Of a stretch of 64,000 nucleotides of DNA, positions 3,173 to 63,506 are shown piece after piece. Position numbers and translations under genes: made by a program. Source of the stretch: Eledone cirrhosa (Eukaryota); contig OZ024740.1 in the NCBI GenBank assembly GCA_964016885.1, positions 66,464,001 to 66,528,000 of the forward strand, given 5' to 3'. Position 1 is the stretch's first letter, and every line of letters begins with the position of its first letter. The notes under the pieces are model-generated. The model was not told the DNA's origin. It saw only the letters and a list, made by a program, of their open reading frames with translations, and ran no database searches.

Positions 3173-3196
3173 TTATTTATTAAAATAACAGATTTA

Positions 3197-3247
3197 AGTT
3201 TAAGCAGAGAATCGCTGCTTTCACCCTTAACGGGATCTTCTGAAACT
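3197..3247 (-). ncRNA. Variant hammerhead (CAGAAGA core) in the Naiad pLTR; copies at 6455-6504 and 29016-29066
   Basis: Minus strand AGTTT-CAGAAGA-TCCC gttaa GGGT-GAA-AGCAG cgattct CTGCT-T-AAACT, then AATAAA and (TA)n. Confidence 0.75.
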
Positions 3248-4171
3248 AACAAAGTCAATCTGTAAACGCAGAAGTGGATATTACTAAAAACGTTGCAACC
3301 GGAGGAAGACAGGAAGACGTTACTCTGATTCGTGGAAACGTTCGCTGGCAAAGAACGGGAAAAAAACGAATATATACGTCATTAATAGGAGCGGTGAAAA
3401 ACAATTTCGCGCAAAGACAGAACCAAGTTTATGGTATAAAACAGGTCGTAGACTAATGTTCTATTAAGTGGTTCATAGAGACGTTCTCTGGCAATGAACG
3501 AAAAAAACCAAGATAATACGTCATATGTGGAGCGTGGAGAACAATAGCACGCAAAGACTAAACCACGTAAATGGTATAGCAGAAGTCGTAGACTAAAATT
3601 CTAACTAGGAGACCGAATGAATCTCCGCTACAGAGTTAAGAACAAAGTAAATAAATACAATACAGAAGTAATAATTACATACACGCAAACAAATACGTAC
3701 ATACACAAGCATATGCAAAACACTTACCATAGGTATACAAAACCACGCACATATAAATATGGGTGTGTGTATGCGTGTATACAAATGAATAAATAATTAT
3801 ATAAACATATATAAATAAAATATACGTATATAACAAGCGCACACACATACCTACATGTTAATACACGAATGTTCGGAGACGTAAGTCAACCAAAACATGA
3901 AGTACACATATACACACACCCTACCTTCTTACGAACCAGCATACTCACACAGACGCAAAACTCCCGTATACACAAAGCCAAACCATATGTACCAGAATAT
4001 ATAAAATTATACGCCATAAGATAAACGCACAAATATACGTACGAGAAGGTATACGTACCTTAACAAAACATACAGGTAATATATACTTAGCTAAGAAAAT
4101 AAGTAATGGTATAAGCAAAACATATACTTAGCTCCCACATCAAGACGTAAAATATCCACGTATAGATTGTA

Positions 4172-6300
4172 CTATCCGTTAGGGTATAACGTGGGGCTAT
4201 AATACAGGAAAGTTTTGTGCAATTTATGTTTACAAGCCGAAATTGCCTCAGATTTTTTGTTTAAGATGTGGTCTGTGGTGTAGAGTATTTCTAGGGCCTC
4301 AGCGGCGCAGAGGTCAAATGGTCTTTTATTTCCGTTATACGATCTAGCCCTAGCCAGGATCTCCCAGTGTAACCCATATTGGGTGTGGTTGTCTTTTAGA
4401 CTCCAGATATAAGCTGAAAGTGACGTCATATTCCTTCTTAGAGGGTAACGAACAGAATGGGTATGCATGTAAAGACGCTGCTTGAAACTATTGGCGGTTA
4501 ACCCTATGTAGGCCCTACGGGACGTGGGTGTTACAACCTTACATTTGTAGACAATGTTACTAGAGAGGCATTTCCCGGATAGGGGGCAATCAACCCGATT
4601 CCTACAATTACAGTTAGTACTAACTACTGGGTTGCACGTGTTCCTACGGATAAGTAGTTTAGCTAAATTTGAAGTTCTGTTGTTATGTGCAAGGTTAGGA
4701 GTCGTAGATAAGAAATTTTAATAGTATTTCTATTAAAAATGTTACTATATTTATGTGTAGGGGGAAAATACTTCGTAATAAGGGAAAGAAAGATCTTAGC
4801 TAAAGGTGTGGCCACCTCCATATTATATGGTGGGTTATACCAACAAATGCGACGGGATCTATTTCTTCTAGGTCTATTTTCGTACTCTGTATATGCTACC
4901 TTATCGACAAATCCACTTCGATCAAGAGTTTCCTTGTAATAAGTAGAATGGTCGTTGAAAATACGCTCGTTGGTGGAAAGACGGGAAAGCCTCAACGAAA
5001 CGTTTCTTACCAGGTTCTTAGTTATGCTGGCAGGATGGTTGGAATGCTTACTTATGTAATTAAGCGTATCATTCGGCTTTCTATACGGGTAATACAACCC
5101 ATTCAATAAATTGAGGGTAACGTCGAGGTAATTAACGACCGATAGATTGGCCTCAACCTGTATAGAGAGGTTGAAGCCTTTAAATAAGGCTGTGAGTTCT
5201 TTTCTGAACCTGTCGCAAGCACGAGGTCCGCACTTAGTCATGGTCAAAAGACCATCGTCACGGTACAAACCACCGCCCGCGTTGGGGAATTCATCCTTGA
5301 TAGAGAAAAGGAGGAAAAGGCCGATAAGATCAGTAACCTCCGCAGAATCACTGGCGCACATACTCACGTCGAATGGGGTACTATTGGATTATTCAATCCA
5401 AATAGAGTCGTCGAAATTAATCACCGACTTTCGGGCATTGAGGATGACATCAACTTCGAAATCCTTAACCACTGTGAGTGTTTTAGCGAAATTGATAGCT
5501 CTAAGGAGAAGTGGTAAAGTGGTGGAGGAGTAGTAATTGTTGATGTCGAATTGGATAAAACGGCAATGTTCCTTGTTACATATGCCGTTGAACCAATCAA
5601 TCACCGCGAAAGAATTGTTCCACAGTGCAAGAGGGGCCAAACTTCTAATGTCATGTATAATTCTATCAAGAATCGTTTTACTAAGTCTGCCTAAATCGTA
5701 CTTCGTAGGGTTAATAAGCCGAATAGAGGGGTTGTTTGGAAAATTGGTTTTGTGATCCTTCAGGGTAAAGTGGGGAGAAATAGGGTCTAGAGGTTCGGTC
5801 CGGTCCAGGATGTTGAGATCAGATGTGATTTTAAACCCAGCATCGTTGATTTCTTTGATGACGCACCGATCAGTTTTACGGTAATCCTTAGTTACAGCAT
5901 TATGTAGTAGTTGATGGTAAGTACTGCGCTCCACTTGATATAGGTTGCCAGTTTTGTCGGAATGGACGTGCACGGCATTAGAATCCTTAATAGAACGAAT
6001 TCTATTCTTCAGGTCTTGCTGGAAGGAATTGCTCCTATTCCGAAATTTGATACTCCGAATGAGTTCCAAGACATCGTTTTCGAAGGGTAGCAATGCTGGG
6101 TTACACGGGGGGTTATTATAGGTTTTAAATACAAATTTATCCTGTTTGTTGTCTGCTTTTCGCGGATTATCGAAATAAAAGGCACACCAACGCAACCTTT
6201 TAATGAACGCGTCTATTTTCTGTATCAGAAGTTTTAGGTATGTTTTCCTGCTTGGTACGGGTATGTTCTTTGTAGAAATATTCAGATGTTGTTTCTGCAT
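4172..6300 (-). pseudogene. Naiad RT-GIY-YIG ORF disrupted by one in-frame TAA (5389-5391) and a 1-bp deletion near 4708
   Basis: ORFs 5389-6300 and 4663-5367 are in the same frame; comparison with 29996-30586 locates the frameshift at SY|STTPN. Confidence 0.88.
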
Positions 6301-7152
6301 GATGAATATAAGTCAGTAGAGTGCTCAACCGAGTGAGCCAAATAGTAATAATAATAAATTTGAAGACTGAAATCCAAAGAGGGCTCGATATGGATAAATA
6401 TATATCAAATATATAAGAACCGTAGAGCAAATATTTATTAAAATAACAGATTCAAGTTTAAGCAAAGAATCGCTGCTTTCACCCTTAACGGGATTTCTGA
6501 AACTAACAAAGTCAATCTGTAAACGCATAAGTGGATATTTCAAAAAACGTTGCAACCGGAGGAAGACAGGAAGCCGATACTCCGGTTCGTGGTAACGTTC
6601 GCTGGCAAAGAACGGGAAAAAACGAATATAATACGTCATTAATAGGAGCGGTGAAAAACAATTACGTGCAAAGACAGAACCACGTTTATGGTATAAAACA
6701 GGTCGTAGACTAATGTTCTATTAAGTGGTTCATAGAGACGTTCTCTGGCAATGAACGAAAAAAACGAAGATAATACGTCATATGTGGATCGTGGAGAACA
6801 AAGACAAAACCACGTAAATGGTATAGCAGAAGTCGTAGACTAAAGTTCTAACTAGGAGACCGAATGAATCTCCGCTACAGAGTTAAGAACAAAGTAAATA
6901 GATACAATACAGAAGTAATAGAAATAAATAAATGTATGTACAGGCAAACAAATACGTACATACACAACATACGCAAAACACTTACCATAGGTATACAAAA
7001 CCACGCACGTATAAATGTGTGTGTGTGCATGCGTGTATACAAATAAATAAATAAATATATAAACGTATATATGTGTATATATATATATACATATATATAC
7101 ATATATATATACATATATATACATATATACATATATACATATATATATACAC

Positions 7153-7468: not shown

Positions 7469-7715
7469 GTATATACATATATATATATATATATATACAT
7501 ACATATATATATATATTTCCTTTCAGAATTTGTTTAGCAAGATTCCTTATCTGAAAGCGTGTTACAACCGATATTGTTATTCTTTGGGAGGGTCATGTTG
7601 CCAATAAGTAAGAAACACACGCACCAGGTGCTTTCACTCCAATGTATTATATATTACATTTATAAATTTAAGAATTTATAAATTTCTTATTGGCAACATG
7701 ACCCTCCCAAAGCAT

Positions 7716-7759
<44 letters not shown>

Positions 7760-19643: not shown

Positions 19644-19727
19644 TTCCGTCTGACGAGGTGAGGATACCAGAATTAGTAGGATAAAACCCATCTAGCCGTA
19701 TTCCTCGGCGAAATATATATAATTGAA
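19644..19727 (+). ncRNA. Type I hammerhead with long stem II and weakened stem I
   Basis: CTGACGA at 19650; stem II GAGGATAC/GTATTCCTC; GAA-ATATATAT-A; AATAAA; (TA)n about 35 nt later. Confidence 0.72.
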
Positions 19728-21111: not shown

Positions 21112-21137
21112 AAAGATTGTCTGCAGCGGTGAGACTA

Positions 21138-21340
21138 AAGAGACTCCAAATCATCAGAGTGCTCGATGCAAGGGGAGAAGTAGAGTGTGTGTAGATCGAC
21201 GTAATATACTAAGCGCTGCGGCAATAAAGCCGTAACCTCATGGCACCGTGGTCATGGTTCTATCTCTCTCACTCTCTTCCTCTCTCTTTAAACATAAATA
21301 TATGTATATGAATACATATATATATATGTATATATATGTA

Positions 21341-21435
<95 letters not shown>

Positions 21436-25554: not shown

Positions 25555-26418
25555 GTAGAATAATCGAGTATCGAAAAATCGGCGCACTAGTTCACGATAA
25601 ACAAAATTCGATATGAGCGGCAGAGTGCTCTATAATTTAGATAAATCAGAGCTATAACTATCGTTAAAATACCGTCACACACAGAACAAGTCTATAATCA
25701 ACCGCACGATCGAAAATTTGCGATCCGGAAGATTCGGGACACTCAGATAAAAAATCTCAATAAATCAATAAATTAAATGAATGTAAAAAGCATACCCGGA
25801 CCCGCTAGGAAGATGTTAAATCTAGCTTCTTGGGTTTCTGTAAATCCTTAAACTGTTCTCTATCAGCTCACATAAAAATATATAAGACTTCTAGAATTCA
25901 GCGGACAGGAAATTTACTTCTTCAACGAGCTTTGTCCAAACGGATGAAAGGGCATAACCCAAGCTAAATACGCACATGGAATTCGGCAAGGGAGATAACC
26001 TCTACATCCGCGAAAACTATTCGGGAAAATGTGGAAATACACATATCGAATAAAAGTGCTCAATAGACATGTTAAAATAAACAGGAGCTATTCATCACTC
26101 AATAGAATCGACAAAAAATGAACAATAAAATGAACTGGTCAATAGCTATGCCTAGAGCTAAATATAGTAGAATAATCGAGTATCGAAAAATCGGCGCACG
26201 AGTTCACGATAAACAAAATTCGATATGAGCGGCAGAGTGCTCTATAATTTAGATAAATCAGAGCTATAACTATCGTTAAAATACCGTCACACACAGAACA
26301 AGTCTATAATCAACCGCACGATCGAAAATTTGCTATCCGGAAGATTCGGGACACTCAGATAAAAAATCTCAATAAATCAATAAATTAAATGAATGTAAAA
26401 AACATACCCGGACCCGCT

Positions 26419-26420
<2 letters not shown>
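25551..26420 (+). mobile_element. Short PLE-like derivative with 258-bp direct terminal repeats (25551-25808, 26163-26420)
   Basis: Direct repeat with 612-bp period ending AATAAA..(TA)n; internal decayed GIY-YIG-like text RALSKRMKGH..NVEI..ELFI..MNNK. Confidence 0.6.
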
Positions 26421-26503
<83 letters not shown>

Positions 26504-26506
<3 letters not shown>

Positions 26507-26775
26507 CGAAGGAGGTGTGGTAAGGAACCAGATGGACCATAACGCACTAGAGTACTCAACACTTAGTGTAGTAGAGTGGGTAATAGGAAAAAATTTGACC
26601 CCGACGGCAGAGCTCAAGCCGTTTGGATGGCTATAGTCCAGAAATAGCCGTCGAAACGACGTGAGCTTTGCCGTCGGGGTCAAACTTTTTCCTATAACTC
26701 TCTCTACTAACCTAAGTGTTGAGTACTCTAGTGCGTTATGGTCCATCTGGTTCCTTACCATAAACTCCTTCGTTA
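26504..26775. repeat. Fully symmetric copy of palindromic family P1 in (TA)n
   Basis: Inverted arms of about 130 bp, TAACGAAGGAG...CTCCTTCGTTA. Confidence 0.92.
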
Positions 26776-26789
26776 TATATATATATAGT

Positions 26790-27768: not shown

Positions 27769-28373
27769 TATATGTGTATGTGTTTATAGGTGTGTGTCTG
27801 CCTCTGTGTGTATGTGGGTAAGTCGGCGCGTGTATGAATGTGCTTTTTGACAGCTGGAAAATACATTAAGAGAAACTTCACAATAAGAGTACCACCCGTC
27901 CGTTCTTCCACACTAGCATGGGTTAGATGGGACTTCTTGGGTCTCCCCACTCTCGCAGGGAACGATGGGGTCTGACCATTAATAAGCGTTGACAAATTCT
28001 AATATATATATATACATATATATGAAAAATGTTTGTCCTTCATCAGTCATCTTCCAACCATCATAGGCATTTCATCGCTTTAAAGACCATATACCTCTGG
28101 TTGGTCCGAGCAACGGCTATATATATATATATATATATATACATATATACATATATATACATATATATATATGTATTCATATATATATATTTATGTTTAG
28201 AGTGACAGAAAGAGAGTGAGAGAGATAGAACCGTGGCCACGGTGCCAAGTGGTTTCGGCTTTATTACCGCAGCGCTTAGTATATTTCCTCGCTCTACACA
28301 CACTCTAATTCTCCCCATGCATCGAGCAGTCTGATGATTAGGAGTCTCTTTGTATATATATATATGTCTCTAT

Positions 28374-29006: not shown

Positions 29007-29012
<6 letters not shown>

Positions 29013-30583
29013 TAAAGTTTAAGCAAAGAATCGCTGCTTTCACCCTTAACGGGATCTTCTGAAACTAACAAAGTCAATCTTTAAACGCAGAACTGGATAT
29101 TTCAAAAAACGTTGCAACCGAAGGAAGACAGGAAGACGATACTTTGGTTCGTGGTAACGTTCGCTGGGAAAGAACGGGAAAAAACGAATAAAACGTCATT
29201 AATAGGAGCGGTGAAAAACAATTACGCGCAAAGACAAAATCATGTTTATGGTATAAAAGAGGTCGTAGACTAATGTTCCCTTAGGTGGTGCATAGAGACG
29301 TTCTCTGGCAATGAACGAAAAAACGAAGATAATAAGTCATATGTGGTGCTGGAGAACAAAAGCACGCAAAGACAAAACCACGTAAATGGTATAGCAGAGT
29401 CGATAGACTAAAATTCTAACTAGGAGACCAAATGAATCTCCGCTACAGAGTTAAGAACAAAGTAAATAAATACAATACAGAAGTAATAGAAACAAATAAA
29501 TACATACATGCAAACAGATACGTACAATCACAAGCATACGCAAAACCTTACCATAGGTATACAAAACCACGCACATATAAATATGTGTGTGTGTGTGTAT
29601 GCTTGTGTACAAATAAATAAATAATTATATAAACGTATATAAGTAAATAAATACGTATATAACAAGCGCACACACATACCTACAAATAAATACACGAATG
29701 TTCGGAGACGTAAGTCAACTAAAACAAAAAATACACATATACACACACCCACCATACGTTCGAACCTGCATACTCACTCGGACGCAAAACTCCCGTATAC
29801 ACATAGCCAAACCCTAAATACCAGAATATGTAAACATGATACGCCATAACAGTCAAATATACGTACGAGAAGGTATACGTACCTTCACAAAACATATGGG
29901 TAATATATACTTACCTATGCAAATAAGTAAAGGAATAAACAAAACATATACTTAGCTCCCACATCAAGACGTAAAATATCCACGTATAGATCGTGCTATC
30001 CGTTAGGGTATAACGTGGGGCTGTAATACAGGAACAGTTTTTGCAATTTATGGTTACAAGCCGAAATTGCCTCAGATTTTTTGTTTAAGATGTGGTCTGT
30101 GGCGTATAGTATTTCCAGGGCCTCAGCGGCGCAGAGGTCACATGGTCTTTCATTTCCGTTATACGATCTAGCCCTAGCTAGGATCTCCCAGTGTAACTTA
30201 TATTGGGTGTGGTTGTCTTTTAGACTCCAGATATAAGCTGAAAGTGACGTCATATTCCTTCTTAGAGGGTAACGAAAAGAATGGGTATGCATGTAAAGAC
30301 GCTGCTTGAAACTATTGGCGGTTAACCCTATGTAGGCCCTACGGGACGTGGGTGTTACAACCTTACATTTGTAGACAATGTTACTGGAGAGGCATTTCCC
30401 GGATAGGGGGCAATCAGCCCGATTCCTACAATTACCGTTAGTACTAACTACAGGGTTGCACGTGTTCCTACGGCTAGGTAGTTTAGCTAAATTTGAAGCT
30501 GTGATGTAATGTGCAAGGTTAGGAGTCGTAGAGTAAGACATTTTAATAGTATTTCTATTAAACATTTTACTATATTTATGTGT
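29007..30583 (-). mobile_element. 5'-truncated copy of the Naiad family at 3173-7070
   Basis: Open GIY-YIG ORF 29996-30586 plus the same 3' UTR/pLTR; bounded by TA-rich sequence. Confidence 0.93.
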
Positions 30584-32424: not shown

Positions 32425-34293
32425 GACATGAACCCTAGCATGCAATTCACTATGTATTTCAGAAAGTATAACTTTCTTTCTTAGCCATACTAATAACAAA
32501 TCAAAACATAATGCTAGATAGAGTCATATTTCAAAACTACCGATTCCCGACAAAATACACATCGAATGCACACCCGCCTTCCACTTAACTTAGATAAGCA
32601 AATATATGCAATAGTCTCAAAACCAACAATAAGTGAGAACAGGCTAGAAGAGATAAACAATAATTGTTTCTACTTTTGACACAAGGCCACACAATCACCC
32701 AGTGCATTACTGGTACTTTATTTTCTCGACCCTGTAACGATGAAAGGCAAAGTTAACCTCGGCGGGATTTGAACTCAGAATGGCAAGGGCCGTAACTCTA
32801 TGCGTCAAAGCATAGCGTCAGACCCTCTACCGACACGGCCAATCCACCATAGATAAAAATAATTGTTTCTACTTTAGGCACAAGACCAGCAAATAACCAG
32901 TGCATTACTGGTACTTTATTTTATCGACCCCGTAAGGATGAAAGGCAAAGTCAACCTCGGCGGGATTTGAACTCAGATCGTTAAGGGACGTAACTATGCT
33001 GGAAAGCATGGCGTCAGACTCTCTACCGATACTGCCAATCCACAAAAATAATTGTTTCTACTATTGGCACAAGGCCAGCAAATACCCTGTACATTACTGG
33101 TACTTTATTTTATCGACCCCGTAAGGATGAAAGGCAAAGTTAACCTTGGCGGGATTTGAACTCAGAATGCCAAGGGCCGTAACTCTATGCGTCAAAGAAT
33201 GGCGTCCGATCCTCTGCCGATACTGCCAATTCCCCAGAGATAAAAATAATTGTTTCTACGTTAGGTACAAGGCCAGCAATTAACCAGTGTATTACTGGTA
33301 CTTTATTTTATCGACCCCGTAAGGATGTGAAGATAAAATACCCTCAGATTATAATCAAAAATAGTATTCAAAGAGCAAGACAAAGTACTATCCATCTAAT
33401 CCGAAACAATGATAAGAAAAAAAGAATCACATATATTTCAAAATTTAACCCGAAGAATACAGAGTTGTACACACACATACAACTAAACCTACCCATCCCA
33501 CTTTGGGAAAAAAGAAATGAAAACTTCATTACAAAAATGTCCAATTATAAAACGTAAGCGGCAGCCTTAGTCACTACAAAAGATACTAACAAAGGCAAAG
33601 CTACAAAATATTATTAAATGGCCTGAAGTGAAAATATACAAACAGACTAAGTAGGGGCTTTGCAACTATGTTTTAAAAGGGTCCTAATCCTACTTCAAAT
33701 AAGGTCCCATTCTCAAAATTATAAATGCCTTCTCGTGCAAAATAGAAAATGTACTATATATATAATAACATGCAATGGTTGCCATGATAAATACATTAGA
33801 TAAACTTGATTAACACTCCCCCAACAAAGAATAATAGTTCACCGCTAGCAAATTAGGGATTCATACACAAAAAAGATCCATCTTTACCAACATATAGAGG
33901 AATGCGGAGTAAAAATGTATCAAATTGCAAGGTCTTTCCATGCTAACAATGTTGTCAGTCAAAATCAGAGGAAACTTGCTTTGGCATAGAAATTTGTTTT
34001 TATAGAAAAATTTAGGCAAATTCGGAAATCTTTGCATGCGTAGTTTTTAATACCTCTTCAGACAAGAATTATGTCTCTTGTCAATAATTGTGTTTCCCCC
34101 TCATTTTAACGAAAACATATGTGGCAATAACATTACAAATGGAAACTTTGAAAATTAGACATGGACACATTTTTGAAAATCTGTTTCAGCGAAGCCGGTT
34201 AAGTAAAAGAGCTATACTTGTTGATGATATTGTTTTTCGTTGAGTAATAAACACATAACGAAATGTATGTGTAATAAATAAAAATCCATTATG

Positions 34294-34298
<5 letters not shown>
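32425..34298 (+). mobile_element. Old decayed Neptune-type PLE 3' half, interrupted by a SINE array
   Basis: [25 protein letters not shown] | YPQIIIKNSIQRA..FSC..NVLY..CNGC..YI; decayed HHR TTGATGA..GAAA plus AATAAA at 34221-34282. Confidence 0.7.
32659..33327 (-). repeat. Tandem array of about 3.4 tRNA-derived SINE units (starts at 32659, 32858, 33047, 33245)
   Basis: ~190-200-bp units, each the reverse complement of the 21641 SINE. Confidence 0.92.
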
Positions 34299-34339
<41 letters not shown>

Positions 34340-34414
34340 CTCATAATGGATTTTTATTTATTACATAAACATTTCGTTATGTGTTTATTACTCAACGAAA
34401 AACAATCTCTCTCA

Positions 34415-36791: not shown

Positions 36792-36983
<192 letters not shown>

Positions 36984-37019
36984 AAGTATATTTTCGAAAC
37001 AGCGAGCGAGTTTGAAATT

Positions 37020-37221
37020 ATAAATGGAAGCTATCGCGTATTTTGTCCAAAGAAATTAAAGAAAATGATTTAGCCTGATTGTGGGGTTAAGAACCTTCGG
37101 AGAAATGGAAAGAGTTGAGTACGTCAATACTCATCTTTTTCCATTTCTCCAAGGGTTCTTAACCCCACTATCAGGCTAATTAATTTTCTTTAGTCAAAAT
37201 ACGGCGATAGCTTACATTTAT
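37020..37221. repeat. ~200-bp palindrome (family P3) between (TA)n tracts
   Basis: Arms TAGCCTGATTGTGGGGTTAAGAACC..GGAGAAATGGAAA / TTTCCATTTCTCC..GGTTCTTAACCCCACTATCAGGCTA; centre near 37123. Confidence 0.9.
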
Positions 37222-37282
<61 letters not shown>

Positions 37283-37295
37283 TTATATATATGTA

Positions 37296-41294
<3,999 letters not shown>

Positions 41295-42557: not shown

Positions 42558-42620
<63 letters not shown>

Positions 42621-42625
<5 letters not shown>

Positions 42626-42812
42626 AACCAGTAAGACCCCGACAGCTGAGCTCAAGCCGTTTCGACGGCTAATTTTGTCCAGAATTAGCCGTCGAAACGG
42701 CTTGAGCTCAGCTGTCGGGGTCTTACTGGTTCCTATTACCCACTCTACTACCTCAAGTATTGAGTACTTTGGTGCGTTATGGTCCACCTGGTTCCTTACC
42801 ACATTTCCTTCG

Positions 42813-42815
<3 letters not shown>
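42621..42815. repeat. Palindromic family P1, asymmetric copy
   Basis: Perfect ~55-bp hairpin arms plus single-copy right extension ending CTTCGTTA. Confidence 0.92.
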
Positions 42816-42903
<88 letters not shown>

Positions 42904-47778: not shown

Positions 47779-47829
<51 letters not shown>

Positions 47830-47831
<2 letters not shown>

Positions 47832-48035
47832 GAACGAGTAGGACCCCGACGGCTGACCTCAAGCCGTTTCGACGGCTAATTCTGACTATTTTTTTAGTCC
47901 AGAATTAGCCGTTGAAACGGCTTGAGCTCAGCCGTCGGGGTCCTATTCGTTCCTATTACCTACTCTACTACCCTAAGTATTGAGTACTTTGGTGCGTTAT
48001 GGTCCACCTGGTTCCTTACCATATTTCCTTCGTTA
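47830..48035. repeat. Palindromic family P1, asymmetric copy
   Basis: Same hairpin and right extension as 42621. Confidence 0.9.
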
Positions 48036-48048
48036 AATATATATATAT

Positions 48049-56381: not shown

Positions 56382-57323
<942 letters not shown>

Positions 57324-57891
57324 GTTTTGCGAGGTTTTTTATATGAAATCGTGTGTCGAAACAGATATTGTTATATTTGGGGAGGGTCATATTTGCGTAA
57401 TATTGCCAGAATTAATAACAGAACACACTCACTGTTTGGTTGGTTTTCGCTTCTCGCTGTCTTTTATATATATATATCTGCGATCTAACTTACTCGGTCC
57501 TCAATGTTGCCATTGACTGACCGGCGGTCAAAAATAATACAGATACAATATAGACACAAACACATATATATAGTTTACATAATTTACATAAATCTTTCGT
57601 TGCACATCTGCAACATCGTCAGTGGTGTTATATTCATTGTTCCTCCTGTTGTGTTGTATGTCTACGCCATTTTTTTTTGTTCAGTCTGTCTATATATTTA
57701 TTTATTTATTTGCTTGTTTGTTTATCTTATTTTATTTTGTCTTCTTTGCGCATGCGTTTGCGTGTGTGTATAGTGTTATGTGTGATGTGTGACTAGTGTG
57801 TATAGTGTTGTGTCTGCTGGGTGACTAGTGTGTGTTTATGTGCTTGTGTATGTATTTATTTATCTTATTTTATTTAATTTTATTTACTTAT

Positions 57892-59484
57892 TTATACTTC
57901 TCTTAGGTCAGTGTTGTTTGTTTGGGTGTTGTTGTTGTTCCACTCATTCTTTCTGTTTAGCTTTGGTCTTCTAATTTCTATTTCACTGGCCTCTCTGATG
58001 TGCCTATCTGCTGGGTCATTCCTATGTTTAGATATTATTCTAATTTCTATGTTGTCTATGTTACCGTCGTGTTGTTGTCTAGCATGTTCGTATAGTACTG
58101 ATCCGTTTTTTCGTCCTTTTAGTTCCCCCCAGTGTTGGTCTATCCTTTCACCTATGCTACGAGCTGTCTCACCTATGTATGTTGTTGTCATGTTTCTGCA
58201 AGTACCCTCTGTACATCTTATGCTATAGACTACGTTTCTGGTTTTACAGTTTATCCGGGGGTTCACCTTACATATGATACATTTCCTATTAGTACAGTGG
58301 GTTTTCTTAAAAGGGTAGGTTTTGCTGATCAGGGATTTTATGGTGGTTCCTGGCTTTTGTACCACCTTTATTTTTAAGTGGGTCTTTCTCAGGGCCTTTC
58401 TACACTGGTTAGCTAATTTCCCTCCAGGGGTGGCATCCACAAACATGACACTCTGATATCTCTGGTTGTCGTACCATGATGTGGCCTTCCCTATCTTATG
58501 TCTAGCCCTATCTAAGCTATTCCATGATTTGCTCCTGTATAGTGGGAAAATTCCTTTCATGTCCAGTTCTATGAGGGTCTTATATTTTTCCATGGCTCCT
58601 TCGTATACTCTGACTCTGTCTCTTTGGTTGTAGCCAGAGAACTGCATGCGGTTGATGAAGTGTTGGATGTGTCCTTCCATTTCTGCTGGGTCGCACATGC
58701 TGGACACATTCTTCATCACTCGTACCAAATCTGCGATCAGAATATTAAACTTAGCACTACTGGACATTGCTGAGTTTTTGAGTATCAGGTATTTGGAGGC
58801 CATGGGTTTAGCATAGTGTGAGTGGAGAATTTGGGCTCTCTCGTCTATAGTGTTAATCCAGAGTTCTGTGTCTAATACAGGTAGTCTATTGTTAGGGTGT
58901 TTGGAAGGGAAGTCTATAGTTACAGTTATACTCTGGTGTATGGAATTAGCTATCTGCTGGATGCTTTCCATCGTGCTACGTTCTAAATTAAACTTGTTAG
59001 TGCTCTCTAGTGGGGGTGTTCTTATAACTATATTGATATCGTCTACATAACGAGAGTACATGATGAGGTCTATGGAGCTTTCATTAAGGAGATCTTTAAG
59101 TCTCCTTTCCCACCATACCATGAAAAGGTTGGCAACATCACCAGCTATGCTGACGCCGATGGCTGCTCCCTCATTTTGGGTGTAGATTTTCTCATTGAAC
59201 TTAAATATGTGGCCCTTTAGGGTAGTTTTCATACTAGCCCCTATTGCATGTGCGACCATTTTTCTTACCTGATCAGTGTTTTGGGGGGTCCGTATAGCTT
59301 TGGTCCACCCAATCCACCTTCCTATGGGAGTCTTTTTAGCCATTGAGGTTATGGTGGGGGGTCTACCTCTTATAGGTCTACTAGGGCAGAAACATCTAAG
59401 GTCATGGCTGTCTAGGTAGTCAGTGTCGTAGGTAAGTCTAAGTAGGAGGCCCAGTTCGTCTGTGTCGACGTCGCAGAACTCCAC
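57892..59484 (-). CDS. Open but N-terminally truncated PLE RT C-half plus Zn-linker plus GIY-YIG (530 aa)
   Basis: GAAIG..ANLFM, RYVDD, LPVLD, YAKPM, SGY, C..C..C..C, VVY..YIGET..ER..H; N-terminal RT motifs absent; clade assignment is tentative. Confidence 0.8.
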   Translation of the reverse strand: MEFCDVDTDELGLLLRLTYDTDYLDSHDLRCFCPSRPIRGRPPTITSMAKKTPIGRWIGWTKAIRTPQNTDQVRKMVAHAIGASMKTTLKGHIFKFNEKIYTQNEGAAIGVSIAGDVANLFMVWWERRLKDLLNESSIDLIMYSRYVDDINIVIRTPPLESTNKFNLERSTMESIQQIANSIHQSITVTIDFPSKHPNNRLPVLDTELWINTIDERAQILHSHYAKPMASKYLILKNSAMSSSAKFNILIADLVRVMKNVSSMCDPAEMEGHIQHFINRMQFSGYNQRDRVRVYEGAMEKYKTLIELDMKGIFPLYRSKSWNSLDRARHKIGKATSWYDNQRYQSVMFVDATPGGKLANQCRKALRKTHLKIKVVQKPGTTIKSLISKTYPFKKTHCTNRKCIICKVNPRINCKTRNVVYSIRCTEGTCRNMTTTYIGETARSIGERIDQHWGELKGRKNGSVLYEHARQQHDGNIDNIEIRIISKHRNDPADRHIREASEIEIRRPKLNRKNEWNNNNTQTNNTDLREV

Positions 59485-60297
59485 CTCACTCTCAAGGTGG
59501 TAGAAAACCAGGAACCACCATAAAATCCCTGATCAGCAAAACCTACCCTTTTAAGAAAACCCACTGTACTAATAGGAAATGTATCATATGTAAGGTGAAC
59601 CCCCGGATAAACTGTAAAACCAGAAACGTAGTCTATAGCATAAGATGTACAGAGGGTACTTGCAGAAACATGACAACAACATACATAGGTGAGACAGCTC
59701 GTAGCATAGGTGAAAGGATAGACCAACACTGGGGGGAACTAAAAGGACGAAAAAACGGATCAGTACTATACGAACATGCTAGACAACAACACGACGGTAA
59801 CATAGACAACATAGAAATTAGAATAATATCTAAACATAGGAATGACCCAGCAGATAGGCAAATCAGAGAGGCCAGTGAAATAGAAATTAGAAGACCAAAG
59901 CTAAACAGAAAGAATGAGTGGAACAACAACAACACCCAAACAAACAACACTGACCTAAGAGAAGTATAAATAAGTAAATAAAATTAAATAAAATAAGATA
60001 AATAAATTCATACACAAGCACATAAACACACACTAGTCACCCAGCAGACACAACACTATACACACTAGTCACACATCACACATAACACTATACACACACG
60101 CAAACGCATGCGCAAAGAAGACAAAATAAAATAAGATAAACAAACAAGCAAATAAATAAATAAATATATAGACAGACTGAACAAAAAAAAAATGGCGTAG
60201 ACATACAACACAACAGGAGGAACAATGAATATAACACCACTGACGATGTTGCAGATGTGTCTTTCAATAACCTTTCAGCTTGGCACAAGCAAATGCA

Positions 60298-60365
60298 ATA
60301 GCGGCGATGAATTAGTTTTGCGAGGTTTTTTATATGAAATCGTGTGTCGAATCAGATATTGTTAT
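60298..60365 (+). ncRNA. Decayed hammerhead of a separate pLTR, antisense to the adjacent PLE segment
   Basis: ATAGCGG-CGATGA..C-GAA(T/A)CAGAT-A-TTGTTAT; the copy at 57358 retains GAAA. Confidence 0.5.
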
Positions 60366-61372
60366 ATTTGGGGAGGGTCATATTTGCGTAATATTGCCAG
60401 AATTAATAACAGAACACACTCACTGTTTGGTTGGTTTTCGCTTCTCGCTGTCTTTTATATATATATATACATCTGCGATCTAACTTACTCGGTCCTCAAT
60501 GTTGCCATTGACTGACCGGCGGTCAAAAATAATACAGATACAATATAGACACAAACACATATATATAGTTTACATAATTTACATAAATCTTTCGTTGCAC
60601 ATCTGCAACATCGTCAGTGGTGTTATATTCATTGTTCCTCCTGTTGTGTTGTATGTCTACGCCATTTTTTTTTTGTTCAGTCTGTCTATATATTTATTTA
60701 TTTATTTGCTTGTTTGTTTATCTTATTTTATTTTGTCTTCTTTGCGCATGCGTTTGCGTGTGTGTATAGTGTTATTTGTGATGTGTGACTAGTGTGTATA
60801 GTGTTGTGTCTGCTGGGTGACTAGTGTGTGTTTATGTGCTTGTGTATGTATTTATTTATCTTATTTTATTTAATTTTATTTACTTATTTATACTTCTCTT
60901 AGGTCAGTGTTGTTTGTTTGGGTGTTGTTGTTGTTCCACTCATTCTTTCTGTTTAGCTTGGGTCTTCTAATTTCTATTTCACTGGCCTCTCTGATTTGCC
61001 TATCTGCTGGGTCATTCCTATGTTTAGATATTATTCTAATTTCTATGTTGTCTATGTTACCGTCGTGTTGTTGTCTAGCATGTTCGTATAGTACTGATCC
61101 GTTTTTTCGTCCTTTTAGTTCCCCCCAGTGTTGGTCTATCCTTTCACCTATGCTACGAGCTGTCTCACCTATGTATGTTGTTGTCATGTTTCTGCAAGTA
61201 CCCTCTGTACATCTTATGCTATAGACTACGTTTCTGGTTTTACAGTTTATCCGGGGGTTCACCTTACATATGATACATTTCCTATTAGTACAGTGGGTTT
61301 TCTTAAAAGGGTAGGTTTTGCTGATCAGGGATTTTATGGTGGTTCCTGGTTTTCTACCACCTTGAGAGTGAG

Positions 61373-62965
61373 GTGGAGTTCTGCGACGTCGACACAGACG
61401 AACTGGGCCTCCTACTTAGACTTACCTACGACACTGACTACCTAGACAGCCATGACCTTAGATGTTTCTGCCCTAGTAGACCTATAAGAGGTAGATCCCC
61501 CACCATAACCTCAATGGCTAAAAAGACTCCCATAGGAAGGTGGATTGGGTGGACCAAAGCTATACGGACCCCCCAAAACACTGATCAGGTAAGAAAAATG
61601 GTCGCACATGCAATAGGGGCTAGTATCAAAACTACCCTAAAGGGCCACATATTTAAGTTCAATGAGAAAATCTACACCCAAAATAAGGGAGCAGCCATCG
61701 GCGTCAGCATAGCTGGTGATGTTGCCAACCTTTTCATGGTATGGTGGGAAAGGAGACTTAAAGATCTCCTTAATGAAAGCTCCATAGACCTCATCATGTA
61801 CTCTCGTTATGTAGACGATATCAATATAGTTATAAGAACACCCCCACTAGAGAGCACTAACAAGTTTAATTTAGAACGTAGCACGATGGAAAGCATCCAG
61901 CAGATAGCTAATTCCATACACCAGAGTATAACTGTAACTATAGACTTCCCTTCCAAACACCCTAACAATAGACTACCTGTATTAGACACAGAACTCTGGA
62001 TTAACACTATAGACGAGAGAGCCCAAATTCTCCACTCACACTATGCTAAACCCATGGCCTCCAAATACCTGATACTCAAAAACTCAGCAATGTCCAGTAG
62101 TGCTAAGTTTAATATTCTGATCGCAGATTTGGTACGAGTGATGAAGAATGTGTCCAGCATGTGCGACCCAGCAGAAATGGAAGGACACATCCAACACTTC
62201 ATCAACCGCATGCAGTTCTCTGGCTACAACCAAAGAGACAGAGTCAGAGTATACGAAGGAGCCATGGAAAAATATAAGACCCTCATAGAACTGGACATGA
62301 AAGGAATTTTCCCACTATACAGGAGCAAATCATGGAATAGCTTAGATAGGGCTAGACATAAGATAGGGAAGGCCACATCATGGTACGACAACCAGAGATA
62401 TCAGAGTGTCATGTTTGTGGATGCCACCCCTGGAGGGAAATTAGCTAACCAGTGTAGAAAGGCCCTGAGAAAGACCCACTTAAAAATAAAGGTGGTACAA
62501 AAGCCAGGAACCACCATAAAATCCCTGATCAGCAAAACCTACCCTTTTAAGAAAACCCACTGTACTAATAGGAAATGTATCATATGTAAGGTGAACCCCC
62601 GGATAAACTGTAAAACCAGAAACGTAGTCTATAGCATAAGATGTACAGAGGGTACTTGCAGAAACATGACAACAACATACATAGGTGAGACAGCTCGTAG
62701 CATAGGTGAAAGGATAGACCAACACTGGGGGGAACTAAAAGGACGAAAAAACGGATCAGTACTATACGAACATGCTAGACAACAACACGACGGTAACATA
62801 GACAACATAGAAATTAGAATAATATCTAAACATAGGAATGACCCAGCAGATAGGCAAATCAGAGAGGCCAGTGAAATAGAAATTAGAAGACCAAAGCTAA
62901 ACAGAAAGAATGAGTGGAACAACAACAACACCCAAACAAACAACACTGACCTAAGAGAAGTATAA
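61373..62965 (+). CDS. Second copy of the truncated PLE RT-GIY-YIG ORF
   Basis: Differs from 57892-59484 at 4 residues visible in the ORF track (P/S, M/I, E/K, H/Q). Confidence 0.8.
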   Translation: MEFCDVDTDELGLLLRLTYDTDYLDSHDLRCFCPSRPIRGRSPTITSMAKKTPIGRWIGWTKAIRTPQNTDQVRKMVAHAIGASIKTTLKGHIFKFNEKIYTQNKGAAIGVSIAGDVANLFMVWWERRLKDLLNESSIDLIMYSRYVDDINIVIRTPPLESTNKFNLERSTMESIQQIANSIHQSITVTIDFPSKHPNNRLPVLDTELWINTIDERAQILHSHYAKPMASKYLILKNSAMSSSAKFNILIADLVRVMKNVSSMCDPAEMEGHIQHFINRMQFSGYNQRDRVRVYEGAMEKYKTLIELDMKGIFPLYRSKSWNSLDRARHKIGKATSWYDNQRYQSVMFVDATPGGKLANQCRKALRKTHLKIKVVQKPGTTIKSLISKTYPFKKTHCTNRKCIICKVNPRINCKTRNVVYSIRCTEGTCRNMTTTYIGETARSIGERIDQHWGELKGRKNGSVLYEHARQQHDGNIDNIEIRIISKHRNDPADRQIREASEIEIRRPKLNRKNEWNNNNTQTNNTDLREV

Positions 62966-63226
62966 ATAAGTAAATAAAATTAAATAAAATAAGATAAATA
63001 AATACATACACAAGCACATAAACACACACTAGTCACCCAGCAGACACAACACTATACACACTAGTCACACATCACACATAACACTATACACACACGCAAA
63101 CGCATGCGCAAAGAAGACAAAATAAAATAAGATAAACAAACAAGCAAATAAATAAATAAATATATAGACAGACTGAACAAAAAAAAAATGGCGTAGACAT
63201 ACAACACAACAGGAGGAACAATGAAT

Positions 63227-63279
63227 ATAACACCACTGACGATGTTGCAGATGTGCAACGAAAGATTTATGTAAATTAT
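63227..63279 (+). ncRNA. Hammerhead in the 3' UTR of the Nematis-like PLE (minus copies 57579-57631, 60574-60626)
   Basis: CTGACGA-T-GTTGCA gatg TGCAAC-GAA-AGATTT-A; short interrupted stem I (ATAA..CA / TG..TTAT). Confidence 0.72.
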
Positions 63280-63506
63280 GTAAACTATATATATGAGTTT
63301 GTGTCTATATTGTATCTGTATTATTTTTGACCGCCGGTCAGTCAATGGCAACATTGAGGACCGAGTAAGTTAGATCGCAGATATATATATATAAAAGACA
63401 GCGAGAAGCGAAAACCAACCAAACAGTGAGTGTGTTCTGTTATTAATTCTGGCAATATTACGCAAATATGACCCTCCCCAAATATAACAATATATGTATA
63501 TATATT

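Follow-up and report, generated by a model that had tools for sequence, protein, structure and literature searches.

Penelope-like elements (PLEs) offer the closest described parallel to the repeat family reported here. In the accessible text of PMC8557442, a PLE unit consists of a copy and an adjacent inverted, 5'-truncated copy. It carries a 30-40 bp tail, often at one end only, and in several clades it shows a bias for (TA)n. The available part of PMC3846280 reads palindromes at inverted PLE junctions as self-priming and places a tail on one inverted pLTR. In vitro, the anole PLE enzyme both cleaves and extends the two strands of AT-rich DNA; the tail is bracketed by two RT start sites (PMC11167929, in the text available). 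How PLEs build inverted ends together with a one-sided tail is still open, according to the accessible portions of PMC8557442 and PMC11167929. A type I hammerhead is usual in the PLE pLTR and is absent in Naiad.

The family studied here is a set of short palindromes, four copies of which lie in the window, the 64-kb stretch of Eledone cirrhosa DNA that was analyzed. Like EN+ PLE units, as far as the accessible text of three papers describes them (PMC3846280; PMC8557442; PMC11167929), the copies have head-to-head arms, a palindromic junction, a one- or two-ended extension, AT-rich or (TA)n targets and two discrete end points. Unlike those units, they lack coding sequence, measure only 190-270 nt, carry an 80-nt tail instead of one of 30-40, and have an almost fixed junction and no complete hammerhead; a parent was not found in the window. 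Non-LTR retrozymes, the non-autonomous PLE derivatives of PMC7229834 and bioRxiv 10.64898/2026.07.22.740005 (both in part), are similarly short, protein-less and high in copy number. They are thought to be moved by PLEs, and the palindromes have a possible hammerhead remnant. Retrozymes, however, form direct tandem arrays in which every unit has a complete type I hammerhead, whereas the palindromes occur as single inverted units and have no CTGANGA. Palindromic MITEs of TA-targeting DNA transposons (PMC8969392; MuTAnT, PMC4486113; available text) are also small and non-coding, with inverted repeats and flanking TA. In contrast to these, most copies of the family have unlike ends, the precise short end is common to all subfamilies, and no transposase partner was seen in the window. 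The architecture is already published. A protein-less, MITE-like family at such abundance, with an 80-nt tail and a near-fixed junction, was not found in the literature searched. The same search, with Repbase, Dfam and paper supplements outside its scope, returned no published account of a miniature palindromic family made by PLEs or of this repeat in cephalopods.

A sequence-only reading of the window had listed copies near 447, 26504, 42621 and 47830. All are present, at 447-642, 26506-26773, 42624-42813 and 47831-48033, and an nhmmer profile made from the four detected no fifth copy in the 64-kb window. All four are bounded by (TA)n, with a (GA)n run separating the element from the TA run at the 47830 copy. 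Three copies are one-sided and join a hairpin of 110-123 nt, from GGAA to TTCC, to an unpaired tail of 80-81 nt. These are the diverged 447 copy (+; hairpin 447-561, 79%; tail 562-642), the 42621 copy (+; hairpin 42624-42733, 96%; tail 42734-42813), which served as reference in the read test, and the 47830 copy (+; hairpin 47831-47953, 89%; tail 47954-48033), whose centre is the longest of the family's in the window and near-symmetric. Against shuffles, the 42621 hairpin has a folding z of -18.9. The tail lies on the right of the + strand in all three, an arrangement with a two-sided chance of 0.25 taken alone.

Only the 26504 copy (268 nt, arm identity ~87%) bears a tail on both sides, and it is the sole full palindrome among the window's copies. 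Its outer arm (26506-26585, -) is a mirror copy of the 80-nt tail, its inner hairpin (26586-26692) again runs from GGAA to TTCC, and its tail (26693-26773, +) folds no better than shuffles (z -0.1). The (TA)n target occupies 26421-26505 on the left, and a shorter run lies at 26774-26787 on the other side. A structure-based tool would label this copy a MITE. The three short copies begin at the point homologous to its position 26586 (TA|GGAA), one of nine TA dinucleotides in the outer arm. The 447 copy begins GAAAAG after TAT and ends TGT-TA, not with the CGT-TA described earlier as kept. The quoted centre, stem GACGGCTAATT/AATTAGCCGTC followed by GAAACGGCTT, is likewise exact only in the 42621 copy, with one change in the 47830 copy and more in the 26504 and 447 copies. 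A short direct repeat, GGTC...CTGGTTCC...TTACC, is common to the arm end (42719-42740) and the distal tail (42781-42800); the 447 copy has CTTTT at both repeats, unlike the 26504 copy.

Arms match within a copy better than between copies, as had been noted from the letters alone. Across the 41-42 nt between the base of the central stem and TTCC, within-copy identity is 88, 88, 100 and 93% in the four copies, against 66-90% between copies. Quartets drawn from the arms of the four copies give 34 informative sites, 33 grouping arms by copy, none by side and one crossed; these sites are not independent, because the six copy pairs share columns. Left arms clustering with left arms, which would speak against templating, was not seen. 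In the 26504 copy the two outer arms also have four bases in common that are absent from the other three tails. The copy-wise quartets and these private bases therefore show that, once the lineages had separated, arms were copied either from one another or from a single template. The proposal that one arm is templated from the other is supported by these quartets and by mirrored variant frequencies in reads.

For the read evidence, reads and contigs of four runs were aligned to 42610-42828 at 80% likeness. Three contig runs of one organism share 0.22-0.23 of the window's words, three RAD runs are tied to them only by a common species label, and the material may derive from a relative. Matches to the family numbered 24,462 of 12,467,656 reads in X6 and 25,283 of 12,785,554 in X7, the two RAD runs (~0.2%), and 19,517 of 16,517,967 contigs in X1; the 47 of 8,254,286 contigs in X4, a run from a second organism, are too few to interpret. 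The short end is sharply defined throughout the family, appearing in thousands of reads that pass into TA at the same GGAA point as in the window; TA-flank depth reaches 95% (X6) and 96% (X7) of that in the short arm. The loose ends listed include no peak inside the short arm, although with 671 further rows minor intermediate ends are possible. Seven pairs of mirrored variants had short-arm/long-arm frequencies of 0.48/0.48, 0.33/0.33, 0.33/0.33, 0.30/0.33, 0.81/0.82, 0.24/0.19 and 0.33/0.40, with ~5% of aligned reads fitting two places. Given the precise, family-wide short end and the mirrored variants, the recurrent loss of the left arm at (A)GGAA stands as an observation, in three of the four copies and in reads, and is better read as a second, discrete end of the element than as a truncation.

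Short arms make up about one third of arm-starting molecules (0.35 in X6, 0.32 in X7; rough values that sum two kinds of table row). The share differs by class, from 0.26-0.32 in one to 0.54-0.61 in another, again drawn from both kinds of row. In reads, long arms exceed short arms ~2:1, and full palindromes could be rare, common or in between. The 447-type arm is abundant, with 2386 and 2745 loose ends before 42730. Many molecules end at two AATT sites near the centre, which we interpret as restriction cleavage. In an X4 contig and in the loose ends behind 42671 (691 and 903 reads), the left half is CTGGACTA, the mirror image of the right half, TAGTCCAG, with AATT at the centre. From these we infer an abundant symmetric-centre class, of which the window's uneven loops would be shortened forms (deletions). 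The centres in reads fall into abundant recurring classes, not free scatter. Because the symmetric class is abundant and the window's asymmetric loops look like its deletions, loop direction is weakened as a mark of polarity; the polarity once proposed for the element survives as tail versus no tail.

These short palindromic (TA)n insertions, mostly with a one-sided 80-nt tail, were probably made in trans by the RT and GIY-YIG endonuclease of a PLE, and the family is likely a miniature PLE-made one of known architecture and unusual scale. The enzyme would nick a TA array and copy an RNA bearing one arm and the tail. Two usable end points, the outer CGT|TA and the inner TTCC|TA, would lie 80 nt apart in the element, the outer end giving rise to one side of the insertion and the inner end, as a rule, to the other. 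The second side could come from a second priming event on the opposite target strand, or from self-copying of the first cDNA after it folds back at the central palindrome. The arms would then join in that palindrome, through fold-back or because two cDNAs anneal there. With both arms taken from one template arm per round, copy-specific arm identity would result, and use of the outer end twice would give the full palindrome at 26504. Either the hairpin itself or an autonomous element's end may serve as template. Fold-back reverse transcription had been preferred to cut-and-paste MITE spread in the sequence-only reading. The RT route does fit better, with the layout of a PLE unit, but fold-back is one of two fitting routes, and two-site priming also fits.

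Several features correspond to those of PLEs. The family has a head-to-head inverted copy with a junction palindrome (the symmetric centre class being drawn from reads) and an optional tail between two discrete ends, usually one-sided (three of four window copies, and reads). All four copies have a (TA)n target, a weak test because TA runs are very common in the window (105). Against a PLE origin, the tail exceeds the published length, a complete type I hammerhead is absent from the family, which has the 3' half only, and the centres recur in classes where ordinary 5' truncation would scatter freely. The ~2:1 excess of long arms also allows common full palindromes, as a MITE master would give. 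A TSD is unreadable inside (TA)n, with TA present on both sides of the copies. The coding elements of the 64-kb window show no homology to the family (best local score 31, shuffle mean 31).

RT and GIY-YIG-type ORFs crowd the window, which also contains other hairpin-plus-tail elements. A large inverted RT / GIY-YIG-type element at 57322-63497, not homologous to the palindrome family, has ~40 extra bases on one outer end only. Its 546-aa ORF best matches an Octopus vulgaris RT-domain protein (65% identity), consistent with a cephalopod host, and the element's assignment to PLEs comes from a weak Pfam RT match (E 3e-4), a BLASTP match (E 4e-5) to a Pfam GIY-YIG ORF of the window, and its layout. 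Its inverted halves are near-identical (99.7% over 2.9 kb) and have the same internal junction sequence, and the + strand segment that ends at 60259 breaks off within the stem, past its CTGACGA motif; the element was either duplicated on its own template during insertion or misassembled. A mini element at 7517-7719 (-; 203 nt), from a family other than the palindromes, combines 37-bp inverted arms with a 58-nt one-sided tail. It aligns to the end of the large element with a score of 78 (best of 2000 shuffles, 36), and its short arm and the tailless end of the large element stop at one and the same site, ATAACA|ATAT, while its long arm bears the tail. This homology and the common stop site show that miniature products of hairpin and tail are left in this genome by an element of the 57322-63497 type. 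Two further elements have this layout. The one at 1916-2336 is a hairpin (1916-2255) with an 81-nt one-sided tail in a TA run, with TTTCG...CGAAA at the base of the central stem and no stem III; the one at 36980-37226 lies between TA runs and joins a hairpin (37020-37221) to a one-sided tail of 40 nt.

The same copies could be ascribed to a palindromic MITE of a TA-targeting DNA transposon. Its mobile form would be the 268-nt palindrome, with arms kept alike by hairpin repair or conversion, and the one-sided copies would be deletions at an internal TAATA site. The 26504 copy, with complete terminal inverted repeats and TA on both sides, suits such an origin, as does the ~2:1 surplus of long arms over short. 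DNA transposons that target TA microsatellites are known (PMC4486113, available text), and MITEs can lose their whole interior (PMC8969392, available text). We nevertheless consider it distinctly unlikely. Three of the four window copies, in subfamilies 73-90% alike, end short of one terminus at the same TA site out of nine, and thousands of reads with the same short end span the full range of subfamily alleles; dead deletion products would require the identical deletion repeatedly, in every subfamily. Matching terminal inverted repeats, as in Tc1/mariner MITEs, occur in one of the four window copies, and about one third of read arms stop at the inner end. GGAACC directly borders the inner end, whereas at the outer end it lies ~18 nt in, so one transposase would probably not cut both in register. 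No DDE transposase ORF was seen among the 124 window ORFs listed (by eye; 11 Pfam-scanned). The shared short end and the recurring centre classes would also follow if the hairpin-plus-tail were a fixed master copied whole, whether by a PLE, by a (TA)n-targeting LINE (R4/Dong-like) or by a rolling-circle HUH enzyme, with the arms homogenized only occasionally. The window does hold an ORF pair at 37631-39729 that we take, from its motifs, to be R4/Dong-like. A fixed master should show side-specific differences, and none is seen (0 of 34 informative sites; mirrored read frequencies). It also leaves unexplained the full palindrome at 26504, with two tails sharing private bases, and the family has no homology to LINE ends in the window; we regard it as very unlikely.

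A further alternative concerns the centre, which the sequence-only reading had likened to hammerhead stem II plus GAAA. The centre could be a hammerhead stem II at which fold-back overwrote the CTGANGA half of a type I hammerhead, a tentative and somewhat doubtful idea. The central stem is followed by GAAA, a 4-bp stem (stem III) with a palindromic loop, and a GTC (GUC) triplet. This 3' half, with a 9-nt loop and then TC, is present at 47914-47936 (+), with no CTGANGA partner, and with one G-T pair at 42694-42716. It arose in 153 of 20,000 dinucleotide shuffles of the half element and in 223 of 20,000 with GAAA fixed (~1%; a post hoc test), and the pairing base at 42713 is favoured in reads (81-82%). 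Complete type I motifs lie elsewhere in the window (three by a strict descriptor, at 239, 8847 and 41545), and the 1916-2255 hairpin shares the TTTCG...CGAAA stem base. However, CTGANGA is absent from all four copies of the family, leaving no complete hammerhead, and the half motif is intact in four of eight arms, two of those only via a G-T pair. GCCGTC occurs twice per arm, before GAAA and after the stem, and the first copy is predicted to fold over GAAA; the half motif may thus come from an internal repeat, with the hammerhead-like stem as its by-product. The other three hairpin-plus-tail elements of the window are without the half motif. A CTGANGA-bearing relative was not found: the loose ends listed (with 671 further rows, and centre-cut reads too short for the test) show none, and 0 of 32 metagenome matches to the hypothetical parent pattern run on into the stem, these being chance matches. 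Earlier pattern scans gave three matches in viral_contigs, alike only around the pattern, and then 0, and 0 in metagenome_contigs before the 32. Rfam returned no match for the whole window at gathering score and no hammerhead in local scans of 165-330 and 47828-48037, though it also misses the clear motif at 239; microsatellite miRNA models dominate the 150 of 379 rows listed for its E-value scan. A permuted or type II hammerhead using the CTGATGA-like word of the tail was rejected, since the required stems do not pair (by eye). What stands of the resemblance is the GAAA-stem III-GUC half. That the family is a self-propagating, protein-less hairpin "pseudo-MITE" from a hammerhead-bearing PLE end, its ribozyme core overwritten by fold-back, spread by a PLE to very high copy number and with both arms rebuilt from the tail-side arm at each jump, is unlikely.

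Because the family is so short and abundant, one or two reads suffice to cover its junction together with the ends on either side. In an assembly, arm templating and the use of the ends (long-long, long-short, short-short) can therefore be tallied, and such counts separate fold-back from two-site priming. The family also cautions that what a structure-based tool calls a MITE in a TA-rich genome may have been produced by a retroelement. If the pseudo-MITE reading is true, many TA-flanked "MITE" palindromes of cephalopods and other invertebrates would be retrotransposons.

Other repeats and candidates were recorded in the same window. Minimal type I hammerhead motifs lie in short elements at 165-329 (motif at 239), 8847 (-) and 41545 (-), and looser ones at 19650, 28745, 42305 (-), 56517 and 57072. 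A two-copy non-palindromic family, 21137-21346 (-) and 28142-28351 (+), ends soon after CTGATGA and has a weak, non-significant likeness to the arm and tail of the palindromes. A motif, CACTCTACT...GAGYRCT, in the tails of the palindrome, 1916-2336 and 21137/28142 families was rejected as non-significant (nhmmer E 6.2 and 0.14; shuffle p 0.015-0.29). A tRNA-like tail, suggested by D-arm and B-box look-alikes, was dismissed for wrong spacing by eye and no fold above shuffles. Directly left of the 26504 copy, at 25555-26420, 254-bp direct repeats (98.8%) flank a 358-bp non-coding core in (TA)n, a pLTR- or LTR-like non-autonomous element. A palindrome at 34226-34409 (96%) has a (TA)n run as its centre, the reverse of the usual layout. 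Finally, an element with 640-bp direct repeats and an ORF with RW, DKT and LYRDDG motifs, at 3174-7071 and 29009-30583, resembles the Hydra PLE clade described in the accessible text of PMC8557442.
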